Assembly: GCA_964394925.1 (NCBI GenBank)
Contig: CAYMZG010000001.1
Coordinates: 67,656-131,655, forward strand
Length of the DNA: 64,000 nt
Direction: 5' to 3'
Origin: an uncultured Candidatus Saccharibacteria bacterium
GTDB taxonomy: Bacteria > Patescibacteriota > Saccharimonadia > Saccharimonadales > CAYLGV01
Each line of letters begins with the position of its first letter. Position 1 is the first letter of the stretch. Shown piece after piece: positions 4,697 to 20,800 of the stretch. The notes under the pieces are model-generated. The model did no database searches. It had not been told where the DNA came from and saw only the letters and a list, made by a program, of their open reading frames with translations. The translations under genes were made by a program, and so were the position numbers.

Positions 4697-4784
4697 GTCT
4701 TTATAGTAACAAATGGACCAATCCTGAACACAAAGGTTTGCAACAGTATGGGTGTTATACTTTTCAATAGGATTATCAGATATC

Positions 4785-5540
4785 ATGGGAAAGATAGTAG
4801 CTATTGGTGGCGGTGAAATGGGACGGCCAAAGGAAGATGGTAGTGGCTTTTATCCCGTAGAGACAACAGCCATTGATCAAGAAATCATTACGTTAACAAA
4901 TAAGAAGCACCCAGCATTGCTCTTTTTGCCGACGGCAAGTGGTGATTCTGCCGGCTATGCCGAAGTAGTTCAGAAACACTTTACAAACCTCGGGTGCACT
5001 ACTGTAGATGTGCTGAATCTATCCGATAAGGCCCTGGCACATGAGCAGATACGAAAGATAATCCTATCACACGACGCTATTTATGTTGGTGGCGGTAACA
5101 CGCTTCGTATGATGACAATCTGGAGGAGACTCGGCGTCGATAAAATGCTTAAGGAAGCCTATGAAAAAGGAATCGTTTTATCTGGTATCAGTGCAGGCTC
5201 AATCTGCTGGTTCACGTCTGGCAGTTCAGATTCTCGTAAGCTTAAAAGCAACAATTTTGTAAACGTTAAGGGCCTGGGATTAATAGATGCGCTCAACTGC
5301 CCACACTACGACAGCGAACCTACCAGACAAACCGATTTAAGAAGAATGACAAGAACTACTCGAAAAACGGCAATCGCCCTCGACAACTGTGCTGCGCTTG
5401 AGGTGGTTGATAACTCATACAAAATCATAACTAGTAAACCAACTGCAAAAGCCAGAAAAGTCTGCTGGAATCACGACCAGTATGTCGTCGAAGAGATTGC
5501 TGTGAGCGAGGGGTATCAACCATTAGATGATATCCTTTGA
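4785..5540 (+). CDS. Peptidase S51 (dipeptidase E-like) family protein
   Basis: MGKIVAIGGGE N-terminus, GGGNTLRMM, and the nucleophile-elbow-like motif SGISAGSICWF. Confidence 0.7.
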   Translation: MGKIVAIGGGEMGRPKEDGSGFYPVETTAIDQEIITLTNKKHPALLFLPTASGDSAGYAEVVQKHFTNLGCTTVDVLNLSDKALAHEQIRKIILSHDAIYVGGGNTLRMMTIWRRLGVDKMLKEAYEKGIVLSGISAGSICWFTSGSSDSRKLKSNNFVNVKGLGLIDALNCPHYDSEPTRQTDLRRMTRTTRKTAIALDNCAALEVVDNSYKIITSKPTAKARKVCWNHDQYVVEEIAVSEGYQPLDDIL

Positions 5541-6282: not shown

Positions 6283-7122
6283 ATGAATAGTCAATTTGAG
6301 GCGCCTACTAGCCATGATGAGTCCGTGGTTGAGCAAACGAGCATTGTTGATTCTTATTGGGTCCGTATGTATCCAAAAATCAACGGTGCCGCTAGTGTAG
6401 TTGAAGCTGCCTCGGGTTTGCTGACCGGTAATATAAGTGTTGCGGTTGATGGTATGCATGGTACGGCCGAAATTGTTATTGCTAATTCCCAGATTACACA
6501 CGCCCATGAGCATGATCATATTAACGATAAAAAGCGCAAGCGAATCTATACTGCCCTATCGGGGTTAGCGCTTGGTGCAGCGGGCTTAGCTTTAGCAGAG
6601 GCAACCGGCGTAGCCGATTGGCAATCAGACAACCAAGTGATGGAGACGGTCAGTTGGCTTTCATCGGGTGTTGCAGCAACATCAGCATGGGCCGCCGGTA
6701 CTGCCCTCGTAAAGCGCATACGTTCAAAATACCACCGTTATTTTCACGCCCCCCTTACCGAAACTGAGCATGACGTAACGAGGCATGTATTGCTTCTGGA
6801 TGTAACTGCATCAACCCTGGCATTTACTAGTGCGAGTGCCCGTATTGCAACGCAGATCCTTCAAAGCAAGGGTTACTCGGGCCTCGATACCGAAATGCTC
6901 GAGCATAGCATTGGAGTTGCGAGTGGCCTGTACGGAGCGTACTTATTTAGACCAACGAAATCCAACCTCCAGCACCACAGCCACACCGAAAGCCAGGAAA
7001 CCTTACCTCCCGCTGTTGAAGAAATGGAGCAAATACAGCCACGACAGCGTGTTTTGGCTCGCATGTTTGGCAGAAAAGCTCTCAAAGAAAACATCGATAC
7101 AATGACAGACACAGAAAACTAA
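6283..7122 (+). CDS. Hypothetical membrane protein, His-rich loop
   Basis: 279-aa ORF with HAHEHDH and hydrophobic segments. No confident family assignment. Confidence 0.45.
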   Translation: MNSQFEAPTSHDESVVEQTSIVDSYWVRMYPKINGAASVVEAASGLLTGNISVAVDGMHGTAEIVIANSQITHAHEHDHINDKKRKRIYTALSGLALGAAGLALAEATGVADWQSDNQVMETVSWLSSGVAATSAWAAGTALVKRIRSKYHRYFHAPLTETEHDVTRHVLLLDVTASTLAFTSASARIATQILQSKGYSGLDTEMLEHSIGVASGLYGAYLFRPTKSNLQHHSHTESQETLPPAVEEMEQIQPRQRVLARMFGRKALKENIDTMTDTEN

Positions 7123-7243
7123 GAGGTAACTCGACTACTATGCATCCTACGTTAGATACGTTTTGATGTCTTGAGATAGATTACCTTAGAGGAAATACTT
7201 TGCATTATATACCTTTATATGTTGTGTTAAAATTAAAGTATCT

Positions 7244-8026
7244 ATGGCAGAACCAACTGATGCAAGAAATCAACTAGACACTTTCGTAGTGCCCTTCGAA
7301 GAACAAACTTTAAGCTACGAAGCTGCCGTTCAGGCAGGAGTTATCTTCAGAGAGGGCATGGAAAACCTGTTCCTTCAAAATATGGAGGTCAGCATTCAGG
7401 CTGATCACAAAGATGGTGGTCCGCTGCATGCTGATGTCCGTCTACTCATTGAGGGTAGGGACTCATCAAAACTCCGAATTATAGTAAGAAAAAATAACCC
7501 CGAACACACAGATGATGAGGTAGTAGGCAGGCCACTTTATAGGATTCATATAACTGAAGAAAGACCAGATCGTTCAGACGGCACAATAATTTTTTATAGC
7601 TTCCACGAAAGCAGCAGTCTGGTAACTAGAAGGGATGTTTCTGAAGATTGGGAACAAGAATTGAAGCTGCGAAGACAACTCGAACCAATGCCTGATTTTA
7701 CAGGAATGAGCCGAGCAGAAACTGCTGCTTATTTTGACAAGGCTGCTGCTCGCTCACAGGAGAGAGTCGCAAATCTAAATTTAGAAGTTGAAATGGGTAT
7801 TAATGACCAGCCAGTTGGAGTAGAAGAGGTTGAGGCGTTGCTTGAATTACTACAGAGTGCTATACCACTATCTGAAGCCGACTGGGAACTTATGCAAATA
7901 ACGAAATATGACGGTTTTGATGGAGAAAATTGGGATAGTTCTCAAGAAACTGATGATAATGCAAATCGAGTTAGCAGAATTCGAAAAGCTGCTAGCACCC
8001 TTTTGAATCTTATTCGAAAAAGATAA
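7244..8026 (+). CDS. Hypothetical acidic protein
   Basis: 260-aa ORF convergent with the RT gene. No recognisable motif. Confidence 0.45.
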   Translation: MAEPTDARNQLDTFVVPFEEQTLSYEAAVQAGVIFREGMENLFLQNMEVSIQADHKDGGPLHADVRLLIEGRDSSKLRIIVRKNNPEHTDDEVVGRPLYRIHITEERPDRSDGTIIFYSFHESSSLVTRRDVSEDWEQELKLRRQLEPMPDFTGMSRAETAAYFDKAAARSQERVANLNLEVEMGINDQPVGVEEVEALLELLQSAIPLSEADWELMQITKYDGFDGENWDSSQETDDNANRVSRIRKAASTLLNLIRKR

Positions 8027-8195
8027 CCGTTTGACACTATTTGAGAGACGAAACAAGCCCATTCAGGCTCTAATTCAGTAATTCAAACATTTGGTGCGCA
8101 TTTACAGAATTTGCTCAAACTCTTCAATTCGCTCATGGATGATAACATATTCCGAGCTCTTACAATACCCGAACCACGGGAGATGTTAGGAAAAG

Positions 8196-9536
8196 TTATT
8201 TATTAGCTTCGGGTTTGGTAAAAAGCTCCTTTAGGTGCTTCTTATCCTCGTTCGTATTTATATTGTCTTTAACACTTTGGAGCTTGGTCTCGAACTTACT
8301 GAGACCTAGTGCCTTCAACTTCTTCTGGAATGTTCGGTCAGGATGCTTAAAGCTCAGCCCAAAGCTATCTACCAATTCTTCAATGGCTCTTGTATACACA
8401 AGGTTGATATTGAAGTAACTCGACTTAACTACCTTATCAGCTGATGTAAACCAGTATGTATTTGCCCAGGAATTACATATGCGCTCCAATGTTTCCAGTT
8501 TGTAGCCCAAAGACTTATTCATGTACTTTTTGTTCTTTAATATGGTCCTAATCTTGGTTGATGTTTTCTTGAACGCCCCGGCTGACGGATAAAGCCTACT
8601 CGCCTTAAAATGAATACCCAAGAATTCAAAATCATCAGTATTACAGACATATGATTTGCTCTTGTGTTTCTTGGCTTTCAGAATAGTCCGGGCTTGCAGC
8701 GGGTACAATTCCAGTTGCAGCTTTGCCACTTCCTCTCTCGCTATTTTGTCAGCCTCAAGAGCATCCTCAAGACTTTTAGTTAGTACCACAAAGTCATCTG
8801 CATACCGTATGAGCTTGAAACCTTTGTCCAATAGCACACGGTCAAAATCTTTTAAGTAGATGTTGGAGAACAACGGCGACAATATACCACCCTGGGGAAT
8901 ACCATACTCTAGGTCGGGGAATAGCTCTGATATTTCCTTTGAACCATGCTTTTTGCGCAAGGCTTGAATGTTACCTATTTCCTGGGCGAGACTAGCGCTT
9001 ATTAAATCATTGAGTGTTGTGTCCTTGGATAGCGCCGGAAAGACCATCTGGTCCAAAAGTATGTCACGCTTAACCTCGCCAAAGTAGTTCTTAATATCTC
9101 CCTTGTAGCAGACCGTATAGCCCTCACTAATGAGCCGATTTATTTCGCTTATCGCTTTTAGTAACCCTCGGTCCTTAATGTATGCATAGCTTGCATCGTT
9201 ATGGACATTGAAAGCCTTCTCTAGCACTTCGTGTATTTCAATCTCAATAGCTTTCTGTACCACCCGGTCGGCTACGGTTGCAACACGGATAGGTCGCTTT
9301 TTGCCCGTAAACCCTTTTGGTATTGCCACGCCTCTAATCTTAGAAAACTTATAACCACCCTTAGACAAGAGCTTGTCTCGGATATTATCCAAGTTAGCGT
9401 CAAGGTCAGCCTTGAAGGCTTGGATGGTCGTATTGTCTATGCCGTAAGAAAGCTTATTGCGGCGTAAAGACCTCCAGGCATTATTCAGCTGGTCTTTCTC
9501 TGCTATTCGTTGTAGTCGTGTAGTTGCATTGGGCAT
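8196..9536 (-). CDS. Stand-alone reverse transcriptase, group-II-intron-like/UG-type (447 aa)
   Basis: RT motifs: IPKGFTGKKRPIRVATVADRVVQKAI, SYAYIKDRG, GDIKNYFGEV, GIPQGGILSPLFSNIYL, RYADDFVVL, FEFLGIHF, and a thumb/X-like ICNSWANTYWF. The N-terminus MPNATTRLQRIAEKDQLNNAWRSLRRNK aligns with typical RT0 regions, so the ATG at 9536 is preferred. An alternative upstream ATG lies at 9812. Confidence 0.85.
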   Translation of the reverse strand: MPNATTRLQRIAEKDQLNNAWRSLRRNKLSYGIDNTTIQAFKADLDANLDNIRDKLLSKGGYKFSKIRGVAIPKGFTGKKRPIRVATVADRVVQKAIEIEIHEVLEKAFNVHNDASYAYIKDRGLLKAISEINRLISEGYTVCYKGDIKNYFGEVKRDILLDQMVFPALSKDTTLNDLISASLAQEIGNIQALRKKHGSKEISELFPDLEYGIPQGGILSPLFSNIYLKDFDRVLLDKGFKLIRYADDFVVLTKSLEDALEADKIAREEVAKLQLELYPLQARTILKAKKHKSKSYVCNTDDFEFLGIHFKASRLYPSAGAFKKTSTKIRTILKNKKYMNKSLGYKLETLERICNSWANTYWFTSADKVVKSSYFNINLVYTRAIEELVDSFGLSFKHPDRTFQKKLKALGLSKFETKLQSVKDNINTNEDKKHLKELFTKPEANK

Positions 9537-9597
9537 ATTATTTAACACCCTAATGCGCTTTGAGCTGTTAGACAGGGCGGTTACATATAGGTCTCCT

Positions 9598-9744
9598 CCA
9601 ACAGTAGTTTCGCTCCTGGTCATCATATGTCCAACAAAGGACATACTTGGCAGACCAGCCAACGCCACTATGATGGCGAGATACCACCTGCTCAGCAGAT
9701 GCAACAGCGAACTGTTACTCCTACCGTTTTGTTCCGCAGGGCAG
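9598..9744. repeat. 147-bp direct repeat, RT-proximal copy
   Basis: Identical by eye to 9904-10050; offset is exactly 306 bp. Confidence 0.9.
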
Positions 9745-9903
9745 TGGTCGATTTTCACATCTGACCCCTGGGTAGAACACAAATTGCTGCTCGGTTGTTG
9801 TGCGATTTGCATCGAAACCCCCGTCTCCTTCACGCTATTAGTTTTGTAAGTGGTCGTCTCAAAGCTTTGGGTGTCACCGCCAGCGACCTTAATGCGTGTT
9901 ACA

Positions 9904-10050
9904 CCAACAGTAGTTTCGCTCCTGGTCATCATATGTCCAACAAAGGACATACTTGGCAGACCAGCCAACGCCACTATGATGGCGAGATACCACCTGCTCA
10001 GCAGATGCAACAGCGAACTGTTACTCCTACCGTTTTGTTCCGCAGGGCAG
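9904..10050. repeat. 147-bp direct repeat, promoter-proximal copy
   Basis: Identical by eye to 9598-9744. It begins about 7 nt downstream of the predicted -10 box. Confidence 0.9.
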
Positions 10051-10057
10051 CCCTTAC

Positions 10058-10066
10058 ATTATAGCA
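10058..10066 (-). promoter_or_regulatory. Extended -10 promoter (TGCTATAAT) for the RT leader
   Basis: The minus strand reads ggggTGcTATAATgtaaggg|ctgccc. The predicted TSS coincides with the first bases of the upstream repeat copy. Confidence 0.5.
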
Positions 10067-10129
10067 CCCCTGTTGGTGAGACTCCGTTGTATAAATAGCC
10101 AATTTTTGGGGCTGAATTTACCAAAGCTT

Positions 10130-11260
10130 TTAAAAGCTCAGCCACTCTTCATTCTGGACAGCACCACGGTTCTTGATGCGAATACCTGGTTCGTCTGTCA
10201 CTTGACCTATTGCTTGAGCCACGACACCTGCTTGTGCAGCTTCCGCTAACACCTTTTCAGGTTCTGGTGTAGCGATAACCATTCCAGAACCCATGTGCCA
10301 TTTACCGTAGGCTTTTTCGTCATCAAAACCTCGTAACCGCTGAACTTCAAGCATTATTTTTGGTGGTGTAATCGGACTATCTAACGTAACACCTAAGCCA
10401 GAAGGTTCAAGCATTCGTCCTAACTTGCTAGGCTGACCGCCGCCAGTTATATGTGCCACGCCAGTCACTTTTGCCTTTGGCTCTTTTTCAATGTCGTATC
10501 CACCAGTTAATTCACTGACAAAACCTGAGTAAATAACCGATGGCTTTTGCACCAATCTACCCAGGCTAAGTTCACCAAGTTCTGCAATAACTTCATGTTG
10601 CCATTCTGGTCCATAGTGTTCCAGCATCGCTTTACGAACATCGGTTATCCCGTTAGAACGGAAACCATGCTCAGCTAGACCAACAAGCGTGTCACCAGGC
10701 TGTATTTGATGTCCAGTCAACATACGCTCTTTATGTGCAAACCATAAGACTGCTGCACCCCAGTTATAGTTAAAGTCACCATAACCACCAACCCTATCAC
10801 CCAGTTCGGCAACCTCGCCGTTCACAACCACAACTCTTGCAGCTTTTGCCGCATCTACATAACCTTGTCCAAGCTGCCGTACAGCATCGCGAGTGTGTTC
10901 TGTGTCGTTAAGCTGCCTAACATCAAGAATTGAGCCAATGGCAATTGGTTCTGCGCCACGCACTACCGCATCGTCACAAACCATAGCGAATAAGTCATGC
11001 GCAACAACCGAGTGGTCATCAAGCCGTTCAGAAACTTCTACTTTAGTGCCTACGCCATCAAATGCTAGGTTCATATACATATTGCCGAGGTCTTTCAGCG
11101 CAGTTGCAGGGATAGCCCGTAGACCTGAGAATGACTCATGAAACTCTACCAATAACCCTGGTCGGTTATCGTGTGTCATTTTTGATGCTTCGTAGAGCAT
11201 CCTCGAAACATCATCTCCTAGTTCAATATTCACATCTTGGATAGGTCCGCGTTCAGCCAT
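10130..11260 (-). CDS. purM: PurM-like AIR synthase family protein (phosphoribosylformylglycinamidine cyclo-ligase-like)
   Basis: DGVGTK motif (AFDGVGTKVEV), DLFAMVCDD and AHITGGGQ. The ATG at 11260 is preceded by AAAGGAG and a TATAAT box; the ORF-track start at 11317 is probably too long. Confidence 0.7.
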   Translation of the reverse strand: MAERGPIQDVNIELGDDVSRMLYEASKMTHDNRPGLLVEFHESFSGLRAIPATALKDLGNMYMNLAFDGVGTKVEVSERLDDHSVVAHDLFAMVCDDAVVRGAEPIAIGSILDVRQLNDTEHTRDAVRQLGQGYVDAAKAARVVVVNGEVAELGDRVGGYGDFNYNWGAAVLWFAHKERMLTGHQIQPGDTLVGLAEHGFRSNGITDVRKAMLEHYGPEWQHEVIAELGELSLGRLVQKPSVIYSGFVSELTGGYDIEKEPKAKVTGVAHITGGGQPSKLGRMLEPSGLGVTLDSPITPPKIMLEVQRLRGFDDEKAYGKWHMGSGMVIATPEPEKVLAEAAQAGVVAQAIGQVTDEPGIRIKNRGAVQNEEWLSF

Positions 11261-11535
11261 AAAACTCCTTTTCATAAGATTATAGATACCTATCACCGCA
11301 AACCAAAGCAGTAGCACTTTTAATAAGCATAAAACGGGGGGCGGGTCGCCTTTGACCCCTGTTAAAGGTACTCCGCTGTATAAATAGCGAATTTATGGGG
11401 GTAGATTTTACCAAGCGTTTTTTGGACAGAAAAAAGCAATACCGAATTTTTGGGAACAACTTTCAAAATACGCTTTTTGCGCCAAGAAATGGGCGACTCG
11501 CGTAATAGTATTCGGCGTAAGCTGGTACTGGTTTA

Positions 11536-12396: not shown

Positions 12397-14049
12397 ATGG
12401 CTGAGCTAAACAATACTCAGAAATTATTAGAACTACTCCAAGCAGGTCAACCAAAGTCACCGGCTGATGTTGACACTGGTACTGTTCGCTATGCGTTGTA
12501 TGCTCGCAAGTCAACCACTAGCGAAGACAGACAGGCGTCTTCTATTGAGGACCAAATTAAAGAGTGTATGGAGAATGTCGTATCTCCTAATAACCTTAAT
12601 ATCGTAAAGGTCTATGACGAAAGCTTCTCAGCAAAAGTAGCTGATACGCGCGTGAAGTTTAATGCAATGATTAGCGAGATTGAGAACGGTCGTATTGACG
12701 GCGTTATTGCATGGCATCCTGATAGGCTCTCACGAAATATGAAAGAGGCTGGTGCAATCATTGACCTTGTAGATAGAGGTCTAATTAAGGACCTACGATT
12801 TAGTACATTTACTTTTGAGAATACCCCTGCTGGCAAAATGCTCCTGGGCATAACTTTCGTCATGGCAAAGCAATACTCAGAGCACCTCTCGGAGTCAGTG
12901 GACCGAGGCAATAAGCGAACGGTCGTGGAAAGAACTGAGTTTATTGGCAAATTCAAGCATGGTTATATTGTAGATATTGACCGCGCATTCCAACCCGACC
13001 CACACAACTTCACCAAGGTTAAAGAGATGTTTGCCATGGCGCTCGCCGGTAAATCACAGAAGGATATCCGACTATGGATAAATGAGCAGGGTTATACGGT
13101 CCAAAAACGCGCAGGTGGTGAATATGTGCAGCACATCTGGGATAAAGATGATGTGTCTAAGCTACTCAGAGACCCTCACTATGCCGGGGTACACAAATGG
13201 GGCAAAAACCTGACCGACCTAGTTGAGGCTTACGACTTTGAGCCGATGATAACCGTTAATGAATTCCTCAGGATAAATAAGATAGATAGCCTGAACTCAT
13301 CAAAGGTATTGGCAATTAGTAGACCAAGGAGCGGTGATATAGGCGCTGACCTGCTTCGTGGTATGGTCTACTGCTCTATGTGTAATAAGACCTTTACCTC
13401 AATGCTTATACCAAAACGAGACAAAGTTACTAAGGAAATCATCCATGCTCGCTACTACTATAAATGCGAGACAGAAGGCTGCTCTATGGTTAATAAATCT
13501 GCTCGCGGTGGGCTGGTCATAGAGGCTGCGCAACAGTTCTTTAGGCAATACCTATTCGTTACTAAGAGCAACTATGCCTATTACGCGAAGGAGGCTGAAA
13601 AAGAGGCTAACCGTAAGGCGACTGAGTTTACTAGCGCCATAGCAAGACTAAAGCTGCTCATTGCCAACAAAGAGAAATCATATGAGGAGGTAAAAGACCT
13701 CATCATAAAGAACCCCGAGCTAAAAGACCACTACGACCTGGCAAAATATGCTAAGGAAATTAAAAAGCTCAAGAAAGACTATAAGGAGGCAGCCGACTCA
13801 CGCGACAAAATTAAGAGCGCTATTCCAAGTTTCGAGGAATACCTCAAACTCCTGGAGTCGACTCCCGTTATTCTGAGTAAAATACGCGACATGAAGACCA
13901 TGGATGCTCTACTGCGTGTTTTCTTCTCTAATTTCACGATTACACCGGGCGAAAAAGACTTTCGTAAGGGGTCAACTGTTACCTATAAACTAAACGAACC
14001 CTGGCAAGGGTTCGTTGATGACGATGATTTCGTTTCTGGTGCCAGATAG
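12397..14049 (+). CDS. Large serine recombinase (rec1)
   Basis: N-terminal resolvase-type catalytic region (YALYARKSTTSEDRQ...DGVIAWHPDRLSRN), a recombinase domain, a zinc ribbon (CSMCNK...YYKCETEGC) and a coiled-coil tail. The last 4 codons and the stop lie in the shared att-like core/IR. Confidence 0.9.
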   Translation: MAELNNTQKLLELLQAGQPKSPADVDTGTVRYALYARKSTTSEDRQASSIEDQIKECMENVVSPNNLNIVKVYDESFSAKVADTRVKFNAMISEIENGRIDGVIAWHPDRLSRNMKEAGAIIDLVDRGLIKDLRFSTFTFENTPAGKMLLGITFVMAKQYSEHLSESVDRGNKRTVVERTEFIGKFKHGYIVDIDRAFQPDPHNFTKVKEMFAMALAGKSQKDIRLWINEQGYTVQKRAGGEYVQHIWDKDDVSKLLRDPHYAGVHKWGKNLTDLVEAYDFEPMITVNEFLRINKIDSLNSSKVLAISRPRSGDIGADLLRGMVYCSMCNKTFTSMLIPKRDKVTKEIIHARYYYKCETEGCSMVNKSARGGLVIEAAQQFFRQYLFVTKSNYAYYAKEAEKEANRKATEFTSAIARLKLLIANKEKSYEEVKDLIIKNPELKDHYDLAKYAKEIKKLKKDYKEAADSRDKIKSAIPSFEEYLKLLESTPVILSKIRDMKTMDALLRVFFSNFTITPGEKDFRKGSTVTYKLNEPWQGFVDDDDFVSGAR

Positions 14050-14260
14050 CCAGCATATTCCAAACAATAAATGCCACTAATGTAGACGTGTACAAGCTTG
14101 AAGCTCTGGCACAGCAATTTAACCTAGCGGGAGATTTGCTCCAAGCATAAAGCTGGAAGGTAAATCACAGCCTGTGCAGGTTCTGTTTAATGACAAGTGC
14201 TTGGTAGCGCTTTGCTGCTGCCAATGTTGCTAGGCAATAACAGTGAGGTATCAGTGAGAA
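14037..14260. repeat. IR-A left arm (224 bp), begins with core TGGTGC
   Basis: Perfect reverse complement of 24003-24226 when compared block by block. Confidence 0.9.
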
Positions 14261-14910
14261 CTTAATTCAGATAGTAGCACCTTGAAGTTAAGCTCACCTA
14301 TATTCTTGGGCGAGATAACAACATTCTGTGCGCTGCTTAGTGTCATATAACTGTGGCTGACTAATTCAGGTATAGCTTGGAGCCAAAGAGCCTTGCTCCT
14401 CATAATTACAATCGTTTTATTTTGCTTTATTGCTTCCTTAACAAGCTCAAAGGAGTAAAGCTGTGAAGGAGTAAAAGCGTTGATATGTTTGTAGTTAATT
14501 GAGTGATAGGGAAAGTATTCAATCATCATAATTTTATCTCTAAGTGCTTCTAGGGACACGCCAGCATTTAATAGTGGTTTAAGTTTTGCGCTCCACCATT
14601 TATAGCCACCCGTTTTTTCTAGCCCGCCGTTAAAGTAATAGAATGGTGATTCAAAGGGGTCATTTAGATTACCCCGACACCCTTCAATAAATGCAGTGAG
14701 TTTCATATTCACGCTTACATCTGAATCAGTAAAACCTGGATTAAGTGCCAAGAACACTACCTTTGCATTATTAAGACCACCTACAAGAGGTTCAGGTAGC
14801 GTATCAAGTCGCAAGCCAATGAAGTTTTTGTGATTCTCAATAACTGCTAAGTCATCATCAAGAATATAAGGTTCTCTAAATGGTAGTGACTTCCAAGGAT
14901 TACTTCGCAT
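14251..14910 (-). CDS. Hypothetical protein, possible uracil-DNA glycosylase superfamily member
   Basis: VVFLALNPGF resembles the MUG/UDG motif-1 (G-x-NPG) and EYFPYHS loosely resembles motif 2. The assignment is weak. The last 10 nt lie inside IR-A. Confidence 0.45.
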   Translation of the reverse strand: MRSNPWKSLPFREPYILDDDLAVIENHKNFIGLRLDTLPEPLVGGLNNAKVVFLALNPGFTDSDVSVNMKLTAFIEGCRGNLNDPFESPFYYFNGGLEKTGGYKWWSAKLKPLLNAGVSLEALRDKIMMIEYFPYHSINYKHINAFTPSQLYSFELVKEAIKQNKTIVIMRSKALWLQAIPELVSHSYMTLSSAQNVVISPKNIGELNFKVLLSELSSH

Positions 14911-14996
14911 ACATATATGTTATTACATTCGTTTAGAAGTAATAGCTTTTACTTTTATTAGTTCCCCTATACCACTACAAAGTCTATAATCAGCTT

Positions 14997-15848
14997 ATGG
15001 GATTATTATCTAAACTATTCAATTCGGACAATCAAAAGGAACCAAAAATTACTGTAACCGTAACTGGCGGAATAGAAGATGACGGTTATAAACCAGCGAA
15101 GCGTGAGTTTAGTGATAATGAAGCTGGTTTACTAGATACTATTAACACTAATGAAACAGTAGTTCCCACGCAAAAACTTCCGTTTTCTAATGTATGTCCA
15201 TACTGTGGAGTAGTCCAATCCAAGCCAGTAGGACGCAAGAAGAACTGTTCAGATTGTAAAAAGCCTATCTATGTAAGAACTACGCAAGACCTTTTTCCTT
15301 CTAGTGCATTAACGGAAGAACAAGTAGCTCACGTTGATTTTTATATGGGAATGAAGAACTACCTAATGGCTACGAAAGATGATTTCAAAAGGCACGAAAA
15401 GCTCTTACAGAAGAAATGGAATACACCAAAAGTTAATACCTACGACGTACTTTGGTCAATGTACAACGACACAGAGCTTTTAAAGCGAAATATAGATAAA
15501 TCCTACACTGGAAAGTGGGCTACTATACAGTTATTACGTAATCATCAGATTGCTACTTTTGAAGCAGCAGAGTATCAAGCAGCAAGAGGTAATGACCCAA
15601 CCCCTTACCTAAAAACAGCACAAGAGTATTCACTAAAAATGGCAAAGTTAAATGAATACGCAAAAGGTCTTACAGTTCAAAGTTATTCTTGTTGCGACGC
15701 CTGTACAAAGTTCCACGATAAGACGTTCACATTAGACTTTATTGAAAAAACACCAGTACTACCTATTAAGACCTGTACTCACCCTTTTAGGGACGGTTCT
15801 AAGTTTGTTCTGTGTACTTGCAGGTACAGTGAATACACCGAATACTAA
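14997..15848 (+). CDS. Hypothetical Cys-rich (zinc-ribbon) protein
   Basis: CPYCG...CSDCKK and CCDAC...CTHPF...CTCRY clusters. No known family recognised. Confidence 0.5.
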   Translation: MGLLSKLFNSDNQKEPKITVTVTGGIEDDGYKPAKREFSDNEAGLLDTINTNETVVPTQKLPFSNVCPYCGVVQSKPVGRKKNCSDCKKPIYVRTTQDLFPSSALTEEQVAHVDFYMGMKNYLMATKDDFKRHEKLLQKKWNTPKVNTYDVLWSMYNDTELLKRNIDKSYTGKWATIQLLRNHQIATFEAAEYQAARGNDPTPYLKTAQEYSLKMAKLNEYAKGLTVQSYSCCDACTKFHDKTFTLDFIEKTPVLPIKTCTHPFRDGSKFVLCTCRYSEYTEY

Positions 15849-15852
15849 CAAG

Positions 15853-17355
15853 TTATTCCTTGCACAGCTCCATTAAGTAATCGTAAATCTTTACCATTGC
15901 TAGCGTGTCTAAGCAACAATAGGTTTTTAGCGACTTGTAAATATGTTGAGCTTCTTCGTTGGTTAAAGCGCCTGTAACAGCTTCATACCAGCGAATAGAA
16001 GCTGATAGTCCATTTTGTATATCAAGCTCTTTATAGCTAAACTCTGGGACTAATACCGGCAATACATATTTTATTGAGCTACTACCCTTAAAATCGTGAT
16101 GTACATAATGCTGTTTACTAAACACGTCCATTAAATCAAATACACGATTATTCATATCTGTAAGATAGTCGGAGTATTCGGGATACGACTTAGCCATTTC
16201 TACATTACGTCCAGTTTCAAAAGATTTATTCCAGACTATTACACTCCCTGTATCGCCAAGGTTTTCCTTCAAACTTCGCAGCAACCCTTCCATTGGAGCT
16301 TTCTCGTTATCGGTCGCTAAGTATTCAAAATGCTCTAGTTCACTATTTTTATCTTTCTTTACGTGTAAAGAATACTGGAAAGGTAATTGCTGAAACGGAG
16401 AGCTACCACTAACAAGCGGTAAGGCAGTAGATACAGTTTCGTAATCCAAAAAGTAAAGTGGAAACTCTAATTCGCTGCATAGCTCTTTAATAGAATCTTT
16501 ATCAATTATAGGCTCTTTTGTTTTCGCTACTTGAACTTGATTCTTTTGTATAACGGAAAGCTTTAAGTCTGCTGGAACGTCTTTCACATCATAAATATCA
16601 CCGTCAATGAGTATTCCTAATTTCTTACCGTTAATACGAGAGATATTAAAAACAGAGTATTCGGGAATGTTTGGATTAAAATAATGAAAAGTCGGACAAT
16701 GACCAGACCTAGTTTTTAATTTACAGCTACAGGATTTAGGCTCGTCACTCCTATTAACAAGCTCCACAGCGTCATTTATCTGCTGTTTGATTGTAGGCAT
16801 AATTTTTTCTACTTTTTCAGTTACATCTATTGTTATTAAAAGTTCTTTAGGGTTGATTGCACCTCTACGAACGTACTCTTTATTCAAGTGAATTACTTGT
16901 ACATTGGAGATGAGATACCCTGATTCTTCAAAAGCTATACGTTGAAAAGTAACATCATATATATGCTCTGGCTTAATTGAGTTTGTAGACTTAACTTCGT
17001 ATAGCGTCCAAGTATCATCAGCATTTTTCTTGATTACGTCAGCCATTGCTAATAAGCCAGTTTCAGTAACTACTGTTGCTTGAAATAGAGTTTTAGCATT
17101 CTCTGCAACTAAGACATCAGTGTCTTCTTTTGCTTTTCTACCTCTTGTAGTAATTAGTGTAGCTTCTGGGAATAATTCACGGGCTTTTGCTTCAACCTCG
17201 TTACCTTGTTCTAGGCGACGGTTAATAGCTTCTTCTTCATCAGTAGGGACTAGTTCTGGTTTATGTTTCCAAAGCCAAAGGTAACTAGGGCAACACTGAT
17301 ATTTCAAGAAATCTGACTTTGATAAATATGTTTTTGTTTTTGTGGCGGTTGTCAT
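15853..17355 (-). CDS. DUF2779 domain protein (predicted PD-(D/E)xK/Cas4-like nuclease N-terminus)
   Basis: The N-terminus YLSKSDFLKYQCCPSYLWLW is characteristic of DUF2779, and there is a Cys cluster (CSCKLKTRSGHCP). The start overlaps the upstream stop (ATGA). Confidence 0.7.
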   Translation of the reverse strand: MTTATKTKTYLSKSDFLKYQCCPSYLWLWKHKPELVPTDEEEAINRRLEQGNEVEAKARELFPEATLITTRGRKAKEDTDVLVAENAKTLFQATVVTETGLLAMADVIKKNADDTWTLYEVKSTNSIKPEHIYDVTFQRIAFEESGYLISNVQVIHLNKEYVRRGAINPKELLITIDVTEKVEKIMPTIKQQINDAVELVNRSDEPKSCSCKLKTRSGHCPTFHYFNPNIPEYSVFNISRINGKKLGILIDGDIYDVKDVPADLKLSVIQKNQVQVAKTKEPIIDKDSIKELCSELEFPLYFLDYETVSTALPLVSGSSPFQQLPFQYSLHVKKDKNSELEHFEYLATDNEKAPMEGLLRSLKENLGDTGSVIVWNKSFETGRNVEMAKSYPEYSDYLTDMNNRVFDLMDVFSKQHYVHHDFKGSSSIKYVLPVLVPEFSYKELDIQNGLSASIRWYEAVTGALTNEEAQHIYKSLKTYCCLDTLAMVKIYDYLMELCKE

Positions 17356-17744
17356 AGTTCTACATTTCTTATTCGGTCAAGACGATATTTATAACTGTAA
17401 CCCTTCGTACCTGGTATATGCAAATAAGTGTTATCAAATGTGAAGCTATAAAATACCCTAAAAGTTTTATCATCTTTGTAATAGATTTTTGCAGGTTGGT
17501 TTGATACAGAGCGATATTTCAAATACTCCAAGATGTATTCCATAGATACTTCTTGTTCAAACTTTACTCGTTTAACTACAGGTTTAGTTGCAGACCTAAC
17601 AGTCTTCTGTGTATTCCATTCACCGCACGAAGTACATCTGCCTGACCAAGTTTCAGTCACAGCGTCGCAGTTGCTGCACTGATACCAATTTTTATTAGAA
17701 GTAGATTTTTCTTGCCGACCTATTTGCTGCCTAAACGAGTGCAA
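17352..17744 (-). CDS. Zinc-ribbon protein; the coding frame very likely extends upstream to 17882 or beyond (see slippery site)
   Basis: CSNC-x10-CTSC ribbon. The track start is a TTG, but the same frame stays open upstream to 17939 and encodes a second ribbon (ICSVC-x17-CYLC) with no ATG/GTG/TTG start. Confidence 0.6.
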   Translation of the reverse strand: MHSFRQQIGRQEKSTSNKNWYQCSNCDAVTETWSGRCTSCGEWNTQKTVRSATKPVVKRVKFEQEVSMEYILEYLKYRSVSNQPAKIYYKDDKTFRVFYSFTFDNTYLHIPGTKGYSYKYRLDRIRNVEL

Positions 17745-17878
17745 CGTTTTGCCAGTTACTTTTTCGTAACATAGATAGCACTCTGGTCGTCCTTTGAAAG
17801 GAAATAGCCACGACCATTTTACTTCCTCACAAACGCTACAAATCCGCTTATCGCCTTTTTGTACTGATTCAATAACGG

Positions 17879-20800
17879 CTAAGAAACCGTCAATAGCCCC
17901 TTGCGTATATTCTTTTTTTTTACGACGTTGGCTAATAAGCCGTCAAGTTGCTTTATGGGTTCTTTTCCAAGGTTAAACTTGTTCAGTCTTAGAAACTTAT
18001 AGCCATAGCCTTCAAGTACTTTTTGCCTATAAACATCATCTGCTTTTAGATAACTTTCGTAGTTACTTTCATTTACTTCATCTAGGTTTATGAAATGTTC
18101 ATTAAATCCGTCATATTCAATAACTATTTTTTGTTTACCGAATGTAAGCAAGAAGTCTACTTTATACATTGGGTGGCTGTAATTTTTATCTAGCGACTTC
18201 AAGTATTCGCCTAGCGGGAACTGTGGAACTAGTTCTAGTTGGTCTTTGTTCTTTTGGTAGAACTCGGTCTGATAGAAGTAGTTCTGTACTAGAGGTTCCA
18301 TCGCAGACTTCTCGTCAGTACCACCGATTTGATGAGTAGTGGTGTTAAGAGCATTTTCATAATAAAGTAGCGCAGTTTTAACTTCGCCCCAATACTCATT
18401 GACAGGCTTACTAAGTACAAAATGTATTGTTTCTTTTGCTCGGCTGAAACCAACATTTAGACGTTGCTCACGTGTCCCGAACTCCTTCCCAGTCTTAACT
18501 GATTCTTCCATTGAAATTGGGAAAATATATCGGTGTGTATTCTCATCACTTTTTTCAACCATACTGTACAAAAGATAATCTCGTTCTTCGCCTTGGCAGG
18601 TATCAAAGGTCATCACCTTTAGGGAGTGTTCGTGTAGCCAGTCAGAAATCCCCGAGTCATTTAGCAGGTTGTTAATAAACGTGGCTTGCTCTCTGTGTGG
18701 TGTAATAACGCCTAATGAGCCAGCATAATCCTTGTTTTTGAGTGCTGTAAATTGCTCTAGGATATAGTTAGCTTCCGCAGAGTTTGTCAGCCTGTATTGT
18801 TCGGTGACACCTTCTGTCTCAACTTGCGTAAACTTGATAACTTCACTAATAGGTAATGAACGAGCTTTCATACACTGTAAGTTATTGTCATAGAAATACT
18901 TGTTTGAATAACCAATGATTTCTGGGTAACAACGAAAATGCTTTTTCAGCATTGTTTGATAATTTGTAATGAATCTACAGAAGTCCAAAATTGAGCGTTT
19001 AACATTAAAGTTTTCATCTACCCTTGCAGAGTAAACTGAACTGTAGTCTTTAGCCTGTGCGTCAATTGAAGCCCTTAAAGTTTTCAGTAGGTTACTGCGA
19101 TACTTGCTGTTAGTAAGTACGCTAGCGTTTCCAGCCTTTACGTTACTAAACTGCTTCTCATCACCAAGTACCAAGATTTTTTTGCCACGAATCAAAGCTG
19201 GTAGAGCTTGGGCAATACTAACCTGGGAAGCTTCGTCAATTATTACTAAATCAAACAAGCCTTTTTCTAAAGGAATATACGTTGCGTAATCTCTAATGCC
19301 AGCTAGTATGCAGGGGAACGCTTGCTTTAAGTCGCTGAAAAGAACTTTAGGAAACTTCTGCTTAGATTTGAGCATAGATTTCAGCGTTCTAATATCAGCA
19401 GCGTGGTGGTCTACATAGTCAATAATACGAGTATCTAAAATGTTAGCCATTTTAGCTGCATTAAGTAGGTACAGGCTTTCGGAACTATCTGCAAAGTTAT
19501 CTGTAGCTATAACTTCAAACTTATCGGCAAGTTTCTGTGCTTCTTTCTTATCATTCAGGTAATCAGCTAGTTCGCTTTCACTCATATCTATGAATCGCTT
19601 ATCAACTGCGTCTACAGATTCAGTGCCTTCTGTAAGGTTTATGGCTTGTGCAACATCAGGGTAGCTGAAAATGAATTGCTCTACTGTGCTTCTATGATTT
19701 AGAGCAGTTTCTAGTTCTTCAAGCTCACCAGCAAGTGATTTTAGTTTTTTGATTTCTTCATCAGGGCTTGATAACAATACATTTACGCTGGATTTAATAA
19801 TTGTAAGCACCTGTTCGTTAGCGTGAGCGATTTCCTGCAAATTACGAGCATTGCTTAATGCGGTAATGGCACTGTTAATGTCTTTGAGTTGCGATAGCTT
19901 GTAGCTCTTAATGAAGTCATTTTCATTTGGTTTACTTAGTAGATTTAATACTTTTTTAATGTTTTCTACTTCATCGCCTGGCAGGAGCAATAGCTCTAGG
20001 ACAGGTTTCCACGAACTTTCATCTAGTCCTTGTTGCTGCAATTTACCCTTTAGAAAGTTCAGTGTGTCTACGAACCCTACCAGCTCTGTAACGTGTTTTT
20101 CGGGCGAAGATAGGTTTAGATACGGAAGTTGAGTTTTAAGCTCCCTTACAAGGGCTTCTATTGAAGATTTCTTGCCAGAATAGCCAAGAAGCCTAGACCG
20201 TAGAGATTGTAGCTTTGAAATAAAGTCATTTAGTGAAGTATGTAATTCGCTTAGGCTTACTTCACATTTCAAAGATTGCTCAATAATATCTTTTGAGTTG
20301 TAGATATTAGGGGCAAACATTCTGACCGCATTTACTGTGTCCCTAGAGCGATAGAAATTATCTTCTGCTGCAAATACGTCAGCTATAGTACTAGCTTTGC
20401 TTAATGACTTAGTTCCGCTATATGATGATTCCTTCAAATAAGCTATACATTCATCTAGGTTTTCATTTATATCATCTACTTGCTGTTTTAGCTGGTTTTG
20501 ATTCTCAACACTTTGTTTCTTGTACCCATTGATAAACGCAGCGAAGTCTTTACTCAATGAATGCCGTGATTTTGCGTATGCGTCAGTAGCTAGAATAATT
20601 TGCTCTAAGTTTGATAAAGCTGGTGAATTAGCGAATGGAATCAAATACAAAACTTTGCTTTGTTTCAAGGCTAATACTGATTTATGTACGTCCTTGAAAG
20701 ATTCAATTAGTTCATCATCAACGGCACTAACCCAATCAATGCCTGTGTACTTTTCTTCTGACTTAATAACTGATTTAACATCAGATAAACTAATCTTTTC

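Follow-up and report, generated by a model that had tools for sequence, protein, structure and literature searches.

A leader with two long direct repeats, conserved upstream of a free-standing reverse transcriptase of the group-II-intron-like type, as a possible template for repeat-guided DNA synthesis

In a 64,000-nucleotide (nt) stretch of DNA from an uncultured Candidatus Saccharibacteria bacterium (hereafter the window; assembly GCA_964394925.1, contig CAYMZG010000001.1), the gene for a free-standing reverse transcriptase (RT) of the group-II-intron-like type is preceded by a leader that consists of a promoter, a repeat copy (A1), a spacer (B), a second repeat copy (A2), and a stem-loop region (C). 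The A1-B-A2-C-RT order recurs in about 10 lineages with RTs that are 30–84% identical, including Saccharimonadales, Flavobacterium, Bacteroides from the human gut, and Mucilaginibacter. The relatives (L numbers below) were collected by scanning genomes and metagenomes with generic RT motifs, and statements about them hold among the matches listed, in which close relatives are under-sampled. Our best guess, held tentatively, is that the RT uses this leader for repeat-guided template jumping yielding (A+B)n complementary DNA (cDNA), a mechanism that we infer. The wider proposal, possible but doubtful, is that a second independent RT lineage, derived from group II introns and not from UG2, assembles repetitive DNA from its own leader RNA by means of a long, R-like repeat that would carry synthesis from the RNA 5′ end to the internal copy. 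The product would be a never-ending membrane-peptide gene in Saccharibacteria-type clades and multicopy DNA with a small open reading frame (ORF) in gut Bacteroides and Flavobacterium.

All parts of the locus lie on the minus strand of the window. The promoter is an extended −10 element, TGCTATAAT (10058..10066, with TATAAT at 10063–10058), which was recognized by reading the sequence; a consensus scan missed this site because its −35 hexamer is poor. Repeat copy A1 (147 nt, 9904..10050) starts 7 nt downstream of the TATAAT hexamer, at the predicted 5′ end of the leader transcript. It is followed by spacer B (159 nt, 9745..9903), the core of which is shared at about 90% nucleotide identity with relatives that have only 53% identity in the RT. 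Repeat copy A2 (147 nt, 9598..9744) is intact and 100% identical to A1, and the start-to-start spacing of the two copies is 306 nt (147 + 159). Region C (61 nt, 9537..9597), which contains a conserved stem-loop, fills the space between A2 and the RT start codon; it holds GGAGGAG and then an ATG-TAA start-stop mini-ORF (9586–9581), about 45 nt upstream of the RT start. The RT gene (8196..9536) encodes 446 amino acids plus a stop and is followed by a terminator-like hairpin (8055..8070). No terminator-like site was found between leader and RT, and co-transcription of the two is therefore likely. Within the 64-kb window there are no other copies of A, B, or C that could be targets.

The RT matches Pfam RVT_1 (8.6e-22), and its best-scoring family model is that of group II intron RTs/maturases (TIGR04416), with 202 bits, which is below the cutoff of 300. 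Using PADLOC, the generic group-II-like RT model gave 1.7e-60 (203 bits), the best named defence type, UG17, gave 6e-37 (125 bits), and the Drt2 model gave 7e-16. A PDB search returned the free-standing G2L4 RT as the closest solved protein (8.5e-29, 104 bits). The YADD motif is intact (IRYADDFVVL), and its residues Y245, A246, D247, and D248 are invariant across 25 aligned sequences. Judged by these profile and structure-database comparisons, the RT is a free-standing group-II-intron-like enzyme and not DRT2. Several other assignments were considered and rejected. A mobile group II intron would not fit an RT below the TIGR04416 equivalog cutoff in which Pfam finds RVT_1 only and not the PF08388 maturase domain; moreover, neither a ribozyme nor any other Rfam family was matched at E ≤ 1 in window positions 7000–11000, and L250, L081, L265, and L165 gave no Rfam matches either. 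For a retron, NF038233 scored 46 bits against a cutoff of 235, and the three short imperfect inverted-repeat pairs that were found are not confined to the leader. As to a phage origin, viral contigs gave just ordinary group II intron RTs of at most 31% identity and no relative. The public gene model for the RT (P0001) comprises 577 amino acids (8196–9929, minus strand) and starts at ATG 9929, inside A1. All 24 homologues (398–457 amino acids) align from the position of Met 9536, and hence, as far as the alignment tells, the public model is over-extended and its annotated N terminus is leader sequence.

Every lineage with sufficiently complete upstream DNA has the A1-B-A2-C-RT order, except two. 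In the clades with a TATAAT promoter, complete leaders are available from the window, L165/L166, L167, and L265, whereas L162 lacks the 5′ part of A1. Of these, L162 (RT 68% identical; GCA_050730595.1, contig JBOHNO010000328.1) has a contig-cut A of 67+ nt, with A1 and A2 100% identical and a spacing of 305 nt. The repeats of L165 and L166 (143 nt, 91% identical) and of L167 (144 nt, 94%) are spaced by 354 nt, and those of L265 (RT 37% identical; 171 nt, 95%) by 381 nt. Similar arrangements were found in Mucilaginibacter (L002; A 92 nt, copies 97% identical, spacing 335 nt), in a member of the Bacteroidia (L043; 112 nt, 100%, 363 nt), in a member of the Bacteroidetes (L077; 219 nt, 100%, 474 nt), in Flavobacterium (L081, L257, L260, and L262; 113–121 nt, 99–100%, 389–390 nt, the values for L081 alone being 116 nt, 100%, and 389 nt), and in Bacteroides (L249–L256; 117 nt, 100%, 379–380 nt). 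Across the family, repeat lengths range from 92 to 230 nt. The Flavobacterium loci are syntenic between nrdA and pheA, which is a stable housekeeping neighbourhood. In Bacteroides, one identical RT protein (P0209) occurs on at least 1000 contigs, and the index lists 4102 blocks of the collection for it. The two lineages in which the A repeat is not detectable are L001 (Chloroflexia) and L003 (Pedobacter). L003 (RT 35% identical) carries, at 4780–4982, a single A-like element (GATTGCCCGAG..., with a 54-residue hydrophobic ORF) plus the C motif, and may, from its sequence, possibly represent a single-copy state of the system.

Some of these leaders are affected by the way in which the genomes were assembled. 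L077 comes from a long-read assembly with indels; at 4860–5110, its RT is split between two frames near the N terminus, and a 1-nt indel separates the extended repeat copies, features that may be sequencing errors rather than decay. A number of short-read contigs (L161, L163, L164, and L168, and also L258, L259, L261, L263, and L264) have their first base within A2 or right behind it, 35–190 nt upstream of the RT. Short-read assemblies break at the repeat, and the leader is therefore often missing from metagenomic contigs.

The boundaries of the repeat appear to follow the start of the transcript. A TG-n-TATAAT element is found 7–10 nt before A1 in the window, L165, and L167, and L265 has a TATAAT hexamer at the same distance. 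Since the hexamer ends 7–10 nt before A1, the first base of A1 would coincide with the predicted transcript start, or lie no more than about 3 nt from it, in all four. In the Bacteroidota, a TTTG-type element lies 10–21 nt upstream of A1, where the reading is less certain.

Region C, on the other side of A2, is conserved. Its consensus fold in six Saccharimonadales leaders has 19 pairs, mostly invariant, with one compensatory change, and forms a stem-loop of the type ACCU..UGU..CG..CUGC-loop-GCAG..CG..GCA..AGGU. A C motif, ATGTAA..CTGTC, is also present in L003 (Pedobacter), L250 (Bacteroides), and L043. ATGTAA is kept in C of L162, L164, L165, and L167 and is not kept in L163; the ATG-TAA mini-ORF may matter for RT translation or belong to the RNA motif. 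We regard C as a platform at which the RT may bind or be primed. Its sequence is similar to the start of B, and a TGTAAC/GATGTRA-type motif is shared, on the minus strand, by the start of B (9903–9894), the end of B (9762–9749), and C (9587–9575). In the Bacteroides and Flavobacterium leaders of L250 and L081, the first ~35 nt of B seem to be present in C as a diverged copy. The duplication was probably longer at its origin than the part that is now kept identical. The window leader as a whole folds better than shuffled sequences (z = −4.0), and, as read from the alignments, the stem of a 5′ hairpin in A co-varies between Bacteroides/Flavobacterium and L043. The leader element has no family in Rfam 15.

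The two copies of A evolve together. Substitutions in A that distinguish related genomes, both among Flavobacterium species and between L165 and L167, are present in both copies. Unit number varies as well: in one Bacteroides genome (L251, GCA_000297695.1; 5047–5923), the order is A-B-A-B-A, with two 380-nt units that are 100% identical, and the RT protein is identical to that of one-unit strains. The period of 379 nt in L249 results from a difference of one A within an A7 run. L165 and L167 also share one and the same difference between A1 and A2, in a 13-nt patch at the centre of the repeat, while the sequences on either side of it co-vary, meaning that homogenization is not blind and that the difference is maintained. 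The L165-type A1 patch is GCTTCGCCATCGT and that of L265 is TTAATCATT; in the genome, B precedes the A2-type patch only. The differences between A1 and A2 in L165, L167, and L265 consist of G/T and C/T changes and small indels. Samples with such differing copies include JGI 3300022918 and ENA ERZ27228460, ERZ27228458, and ERZ27258567. L165 and L167 share a stop in A2 (RW*) just before the hydrophobic segment described below, and L265 has an in-frame replacement of a whole ATC codon by TAA (MRMLILL*), also just before that segment. With these A2-specific stops, the B+A2 unit of L165, L167, and L265 contains exactly one in-frame stop, which fits, as far as can be read from these leaders, a design whose frame is open in the re-joined unit only. 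At the place of the other A2 stops, L162 carries a frameshift, and it is precisely there that its contig-cut A1 starts; with an A1 that may be intact, its A1+B would measure 306 nt.

An earlier reading of this stretch, based on its letters only (hereafter the sequence-only reading), had described the leader as open in the RT frame and its repeat period as the unit of a potential endless ORF. Translation of 9534–10070 (minus strand) in the RT frame gives a single stop, TAA at 10061–10059 within TATAAT, and then 174 sense codons up to the RT start codon at 9536–9534, in agreement with that description. This stop-free frame (9537..10058, minus strand) is made up of the leader ORF, ORF-1, continuing via A2 and C into the RT frame. 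The 306-nt period also proved to be in frame and stop-free: as a circular unit, it has 0, 7, and 7 stops in its sense frames and 1, 5, and 1 in its antisense frames. AAGGAG (9830–9825) and an in-frame ATG (9812–9810) lie in B just where they had been placed, and this ATG is 276 nt, or 92 codons, upstream of the RT start codon and in frame with it. Read in the open frame, A1 gives CPAEQNGRSNSSLLHLLSRWYLAIIVALAGLPSMSFVGHMMTRSETTVG, hydrophobic segment included. A stop-free A1+B unit with a length divisible by 3 is found in the window (306 nt), L165/L167 (354 nt), L265 (381 nt), and L077 (474 nt), and the other sense frames of these units have 3–10 stops; L162 is ambiguous in this respect, its A1 being cut by the contig end.

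How unexpected such a frame is was assessed with 2000 dinucleotide shuffles per leader, counting those in which one of the three sense frames was open for as long as the real one. The observed length was reached by one shuffle for L077, two each for L081 and L250, 27 for L167, 44 for the unique 306-nt unit of the window, 54 for L165, 144 for L043, and 322 for L002. The chance of about 2e-4 given by the sequence-only reading was too optimistic for the window; that estimate is too low because A2 copies A1, so that its 49 codons are not independent. The real significance of the open frame stems from comparison: in none of the lineages examined does a stop interrupt the homologous sense frame of ORF-1 where A1 begins, and its opening there is common to them all.

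The composition of this frame speaks for coding. T is enriched at codon position 2 of A in 8/8 lineages (93/144/101 for the three positions). A hydrophobic 19-residue window (Kyte-Doolittle 1.4–2.15) is present in the ORF-1 frame in 7/8 lineages, and the hydrophobicity of this frame is always above that of the other two; in the window, the maximum is 1.79, and the sequence is hydrophobic in the ORF-1 frame only. In the Bacteroidota, ORF-1 is a bounded ORF of 76–128 codons that ends in B. The pattern of substitution, however, points to constraint on the nucleotides and not on the protein. Between L165 and L167, substitutions by codon position number 12/7/12 in ORF-1 and 50/27/239 in the RT gene, and synonymous changes in codons for identical residues number 9/101 in ORF-1 versus 202/379 in the RT gene. 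Flavobacterium gives the same picture, with substitutions spread evenly over the codon positions of ORF-1. The leader peptide has no Pfam match at the curated cutoff (only weak, sub-threshold matches) and none in PADLOC, and the 102-residue unit peptide has no match in a collection of 5.8 billion proteins. From these patterns, with almost all of its nucleotides under selection, we read the leader as an RNA or template under nucleotide-level selection that also keeps one frame open and hydrophobic.

These features can be combined in the template-jumping mechanism that we tentatively favour. The promoter would fire almost exactly at the first base of A1. The RT would bind C and copy first A2, then B, and then A1 until it reaches the RNA 5′ end, whereupon the 3′ end of the new cDNA, complementary to A1, would re-pair with A2. 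Synthesis would then resume into B, giving head-to-tail (A1+B)n DNA, and from the second round on, the sequence of A2 itself, stop and all, would no longer be copied. Second-strand synthesis and transcription would lead to a repetitive membrane peptide in the lineages with periods of 306, 354, 381, and 474 nt; in other Bacteroidota, a small ORF would lie, whole and bounded, within every unit. In favour of this mechanism are the conserved layout, the concerted copies, the variation in unit number in L251, the position of A1 at the predicted transcript start, the stem-loop next to A2, the intact YADD motif, the open hydrophobic frame, the stop-free A1+B with a length divisible by 3 in the window, L165, L167, L265, and L077, the stops or frameshift specific to A2, and the precedents of DRT2 and DRT10 described below.

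A series of observations weighs against it. Periods of 305 (L162), 335 (L002), 379/380 (Bacteroides), and 389 nt (Flavobacterium) are not multiples of 3, and the period of L257, 390 nt, is divisible by 3, yet its unit has in-frame stops. In-frame stops occur in B of L043, L260, L262 (79 codons), L257 (96), L250 (109), and L002. Overall, the period is divisible by 3 in 5/9 lineages, which is not significant (binomial p ~0.15). Flavobacterium, Bacteroides, Mucilaginibacter, and L043 thus lack a unit that is both free of stops and a multiple of 3, and an endless ORF is therefore not the point of the family as a whole. What stands of the sequence-only reading is a special, RT-associated leader with a stop-free, in-frame A1+B in some clades, to which the 'endless gene' property, on present alignments, is limited; the proposed comparison of orthologous leaders found stop-freeness and a period divisible by 3 in a few clades and, in a large part of the family, the in-frame stops or other periods that this reading had itself named as refuting it. 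Only in the window genome does the open frame extend as far as the RT start codon: L161 has a TAA 9 nt before the RT ATG, and L162, L165, and L167 have RT-frame stops in C. Read-through into the RT in the window genome is a lineage-specific side effect: A2 is fully homogenized with A1, and the spacing in C differs by 1 nt. Other points concern the mechanism itself. We infer every step after co-transcription of RT and leader. Repeats of 92–230 nt exceed by far what a template jump requires (3 nt in DRT2), and the RT has no RNase H domain, whereas freeing a long cDNA needs RNase H or strand displacement. In Bacteroides, the ORF-1 ATG lies 8 nt outside the repeat, such that internal units of a concatemer would lack an ATG, and no conserved promoter is evident at the B-to-A junction. 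Strong conserved secondary structure of A was considered for Saccharimonadales and dismissed, the consensus structure within A being weak (−1.7 kcal/mol). Finally, changes in copy number and homogenization can also be obtained by ordinary unequal recombination.

The last point leads to a more conventional explanation, which we consider rather unlikely, in which ORF-1 is an ordinary small membrane-protein gene, an accessory or effector gene of the RT, and A2 is a partial duplication that is trapped by recombination and not used by the RT. Loss of A2 by homologous recombination would delete B too, and unequal crossing-over would keep the copies identical. The bounded Bacteroidota ORF-1 of 76–128 codons ending in B is what such a gene would look like, L251 shows expansion and contraction, and the stops in A2 can be read as silencing the second copy of the ORF start. 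But the layout persists across phyla with repeats of differing length (92–230 nt) whose boundaries track the transcription start, and ORF-1, unlike an ordinary protein gene, lacks the third-position excess seen in the adjacent RT gene. The A2-specific patch that L165 and L167 have kept amid co-varying flanks also argues for selection over neutral homogenization. An antisense-DNA antitoxin, in which the RT would prime at C and copy A2 only, seems unlikely to us. Here, single-stranded DNA complementary to A1 would silence a hydrophobic toxin, ORF-1, by blocking translation or recruiting RNase H, and loss of the cDNA during infection would free the toxin. ORF-1 does resemble the small hydrophobic peptides of type I toxins, A spans the putative start codon and the hydrophobic segment, and A2 lies directly 5′ of stem-loop C; a direct repeat becomes antisense only via reverse transcription, so that the association of such a repeat with an RT would be accounted for, and A2 could tolerate stops and frameshifts provided that most of it still matches A1. 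Such a system does not predict, however, that A1 starts at the transcription start, that A1+B is stop-free and in frame up to A2 in several clades, or that L251 has an extra full unit, and no precedent is known to us for a cDNA antitoxin that works by base pairing.

Two further explanations concern the frame itself. If the leader were a purely non-coding scaffold, A together with the TGTAAC-type motif could be an RT-binding module that is present twice (A1 with the 5′ part of B, and A2 with C), for instance for an RT dimer, and the open frame would be incidental. Nucleotide-level conservation far above that of the RT gene, the resemblance between the start of B and C, the folding z score of −4.0, and the co-varying hairpin stem in A are all in line with a scaffold. 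We nevertheless find it quite improbable, given that all lineages have this one frame open, matched by as few as 1–2 shuffles in 2000, that the codon-phase T bias and the hydrophobic segment occur in that frame only, that a whole codon is replaced in frame by TAA in L265, that A has a weak consensus structure, and that no Rfam family matches. Conversely, the frame could encode an N-terminal membrane anchor of the RT, translated from ATG 9812, as the sequence-only reading offered as its alternative (a 92-residue extension), or from further upstream, as in the 577-residue NCBI model with its start at ATG 9929. The frame is indeed open in the window genome, but all 24 of the aligned homologues start at the Met 9536 position, and the TAA in L161 as well as the RT-frame stops between A2 and the ATG in L162, L165, and L167 make such an extension highly improbable.

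Of known systems, DRT2 comes closest in several respects. As in DRT2/Neo (Tang et al. 2024, PMC11100668; Wilkinson et al. 2024, PMC12039810), a conserved RNA precedes the RT gene on the same strand, the template is bounded by a direct repeat, and, in the clade of the window, the unit is an exact multiple of 3, stop-free, and equipped with its own Shine-Dalgarno-like site and ATG. In L165, L167, and L265, the linear genomic copy is interrupted and the re-joined unit is open, again as in DRT2. The RT lineage differs, NCBIfam NF041746 (Drt2) scoring 59 bits against a cutoff of 390. The unit is 306–474 nt long versus 120 nt in DRT2, the repeat 92–230 nt versus 3 nt, and the genome already contains the B-to-A junction. 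In DRT2, neo is read with the opposite strandedness to its non-coding RNA (PMC11100668), whereas the open frame described here is on the sense strand; an antisense ORF in the manner of DRT2 was rejected, as all antisense frames of the 306-nt unit carry stops. Most of the Bacteroidota members examined lack a stop-free unit (L077 is an exception). As to the concatemeric cDNA that DRT2 makes by rolling-circle reverse transcription, the extra genomic unit in L251 is the single, indirect hint here. The likeness to DRT2 drawn by the sequence-only reading thus does not extend to the enzyme or to the strand of the frame.

A template RNA with one copy of a direct repeat at the template's 5′ end and another copy 3′ of it is also used in retroviral R strand transfer and in the alignment regions of telomerase and DRT10 (PMC12632851; 10.64898/2026.04.29.721553); cDNA from the first copy re-pairs with the second and synthesis continues, which would happen here on a 100–230-nt scale. 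In both DRT2 and DRT10, cDNA is synthesized over and over, as programmed by short direct repeats at either end of the template (PMC11100668; 10.64898/2026.04.29.721553). DRT10 differs in making 7-nt repeats, in being protein-primed, and in having a SLATT effector, none of which is present here: SLATT or other Pfam or PADLOC families were not found in the leader ORFs, and SLATT was not found by Pfam in the scanned neighbours in the window, on which defence libraries were not run. Assignment of the RT to DRT10/UG17 (formerly G2L3) was rejected, as the UG17 model scored 125 bits against 203 bits for the generic RT model. Retroviruses carry RNase H, and their repeats flank the whole element including the RT, whereas the RT gene lies outside the repeats here. 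With G2L4 (Simon and Zimmerly 2008, PMC2602772; Park et al. 2022, 10.1101/2022.03.14.484287; PDB 9d5x), our RT shares that it is free-standing and has no intron ribozyme; G2L4, however, has YIDD, no known partner RNA, and a role in double-strand-break repair, as opposed to YADD and a conserved repeat-bearing leader.

Diversity-generating retroelements (DGRs), with their template and variable repeats (TR/VR), likewise have two direct repeats of ~100–150 nt near the RT and a conserved spacer between the RT-proximal copy and the RT. They were rejected as an explanation because the copies are identical in the window, or differ at non-adenine positions and by small indels (L165, L167, and L265); moreover, A1 is at the 5′ end of a transcript, after a promoter, and not at the 3′ end of a large target gene, and the RT falls outside the DGR clade and has no Avd. 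Type I toxin-antitoxin systems (hok/sok) resemble the leader in having a small hydrophobic ORF in an mRNA whose nucleotides are conserved beyond the need of the protein, but a conserved antisense RNA gene was not found here, and they offer nothing comparable to its association with an RT and a direct repeat. Neither a repeat nor an RNA is described as a partner of G2L RTs in reviews and primary papers on these enzymes (PMC2602772, PMC8632793), and full-text literature searches and the G2L, DRT2, and DRT10 papers gave no description of the repeat layout, one possibly relevant 2026 preprint not being covered. The system is best classed among the free-standing group-II-intron-like RTs, with a partner RNA of a new kind and an apparently undescribed layout. 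By analogy, its functional logic would be most like that of DRT2/Neo and the repeat-guided re-alignment of DRT10, telomerase, and retroviral strand transfer.

In the window, the RT locus is flanked by an AIR-synthase-like gene (10130–11317) and an ORF of unknown function (7244–8026). Further upstream are a large serine recombinase (12397–14049), a DUF2779/Cas4-like protein (15853–17355), and a 1556-residue SF1 helicase with AAA_11/AAA_12 domains (17879–22549), and the region 12397–22549 may be a mobile or defence island. Neighbours in the relatives include a DpnII restriction gene (L161) and a KAP NTPase with a resolvase (L165); in Bacteroides, the RT is found in an integrase/patatin island with IS66 insertions. 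Each copy of A in the window also contains a promoter-like site on the strand opposite to the RT (9647–9674 and 9953–9980, plus strand; TTGGCA, 16 nt, TATGAT; 10/12 matches), which would drive antisense RNA over the 5′ half of A. The region-wide number of such sites is not above that in shuffles, and, on a reading of the relatives' sequences, the −10 hexamer is not conserved, being poor in L162 and L165.

Regardless of mechanism, this leader element, absent from Rfam 15, marks a widespread family of free-standing RTs. A practical consequence is that the leader is easily missed in metagenomes, where short-read contigs break at the repeat. Since the carriers include culturable and genetically tractable hosts (Bacteroides and Flavobacterium), the function of a 'G2L' RT is directly testable. 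Carrier genomes are, for example, Bacteroides CP119603.1 (locus around 1,507,918–1,521,192) and Flavobacterium ginsenosidimutans CP147988.1 (around 2,761,943–2,769,229). If template jumping is true, RNA-templated assembly of repetitive genes would no longer be a peculiarity of DRT2, and the strategy would have been reached twice by unrelated RTs, here with a different logic that combines long terminal redundancy with a sense-strand ORF.

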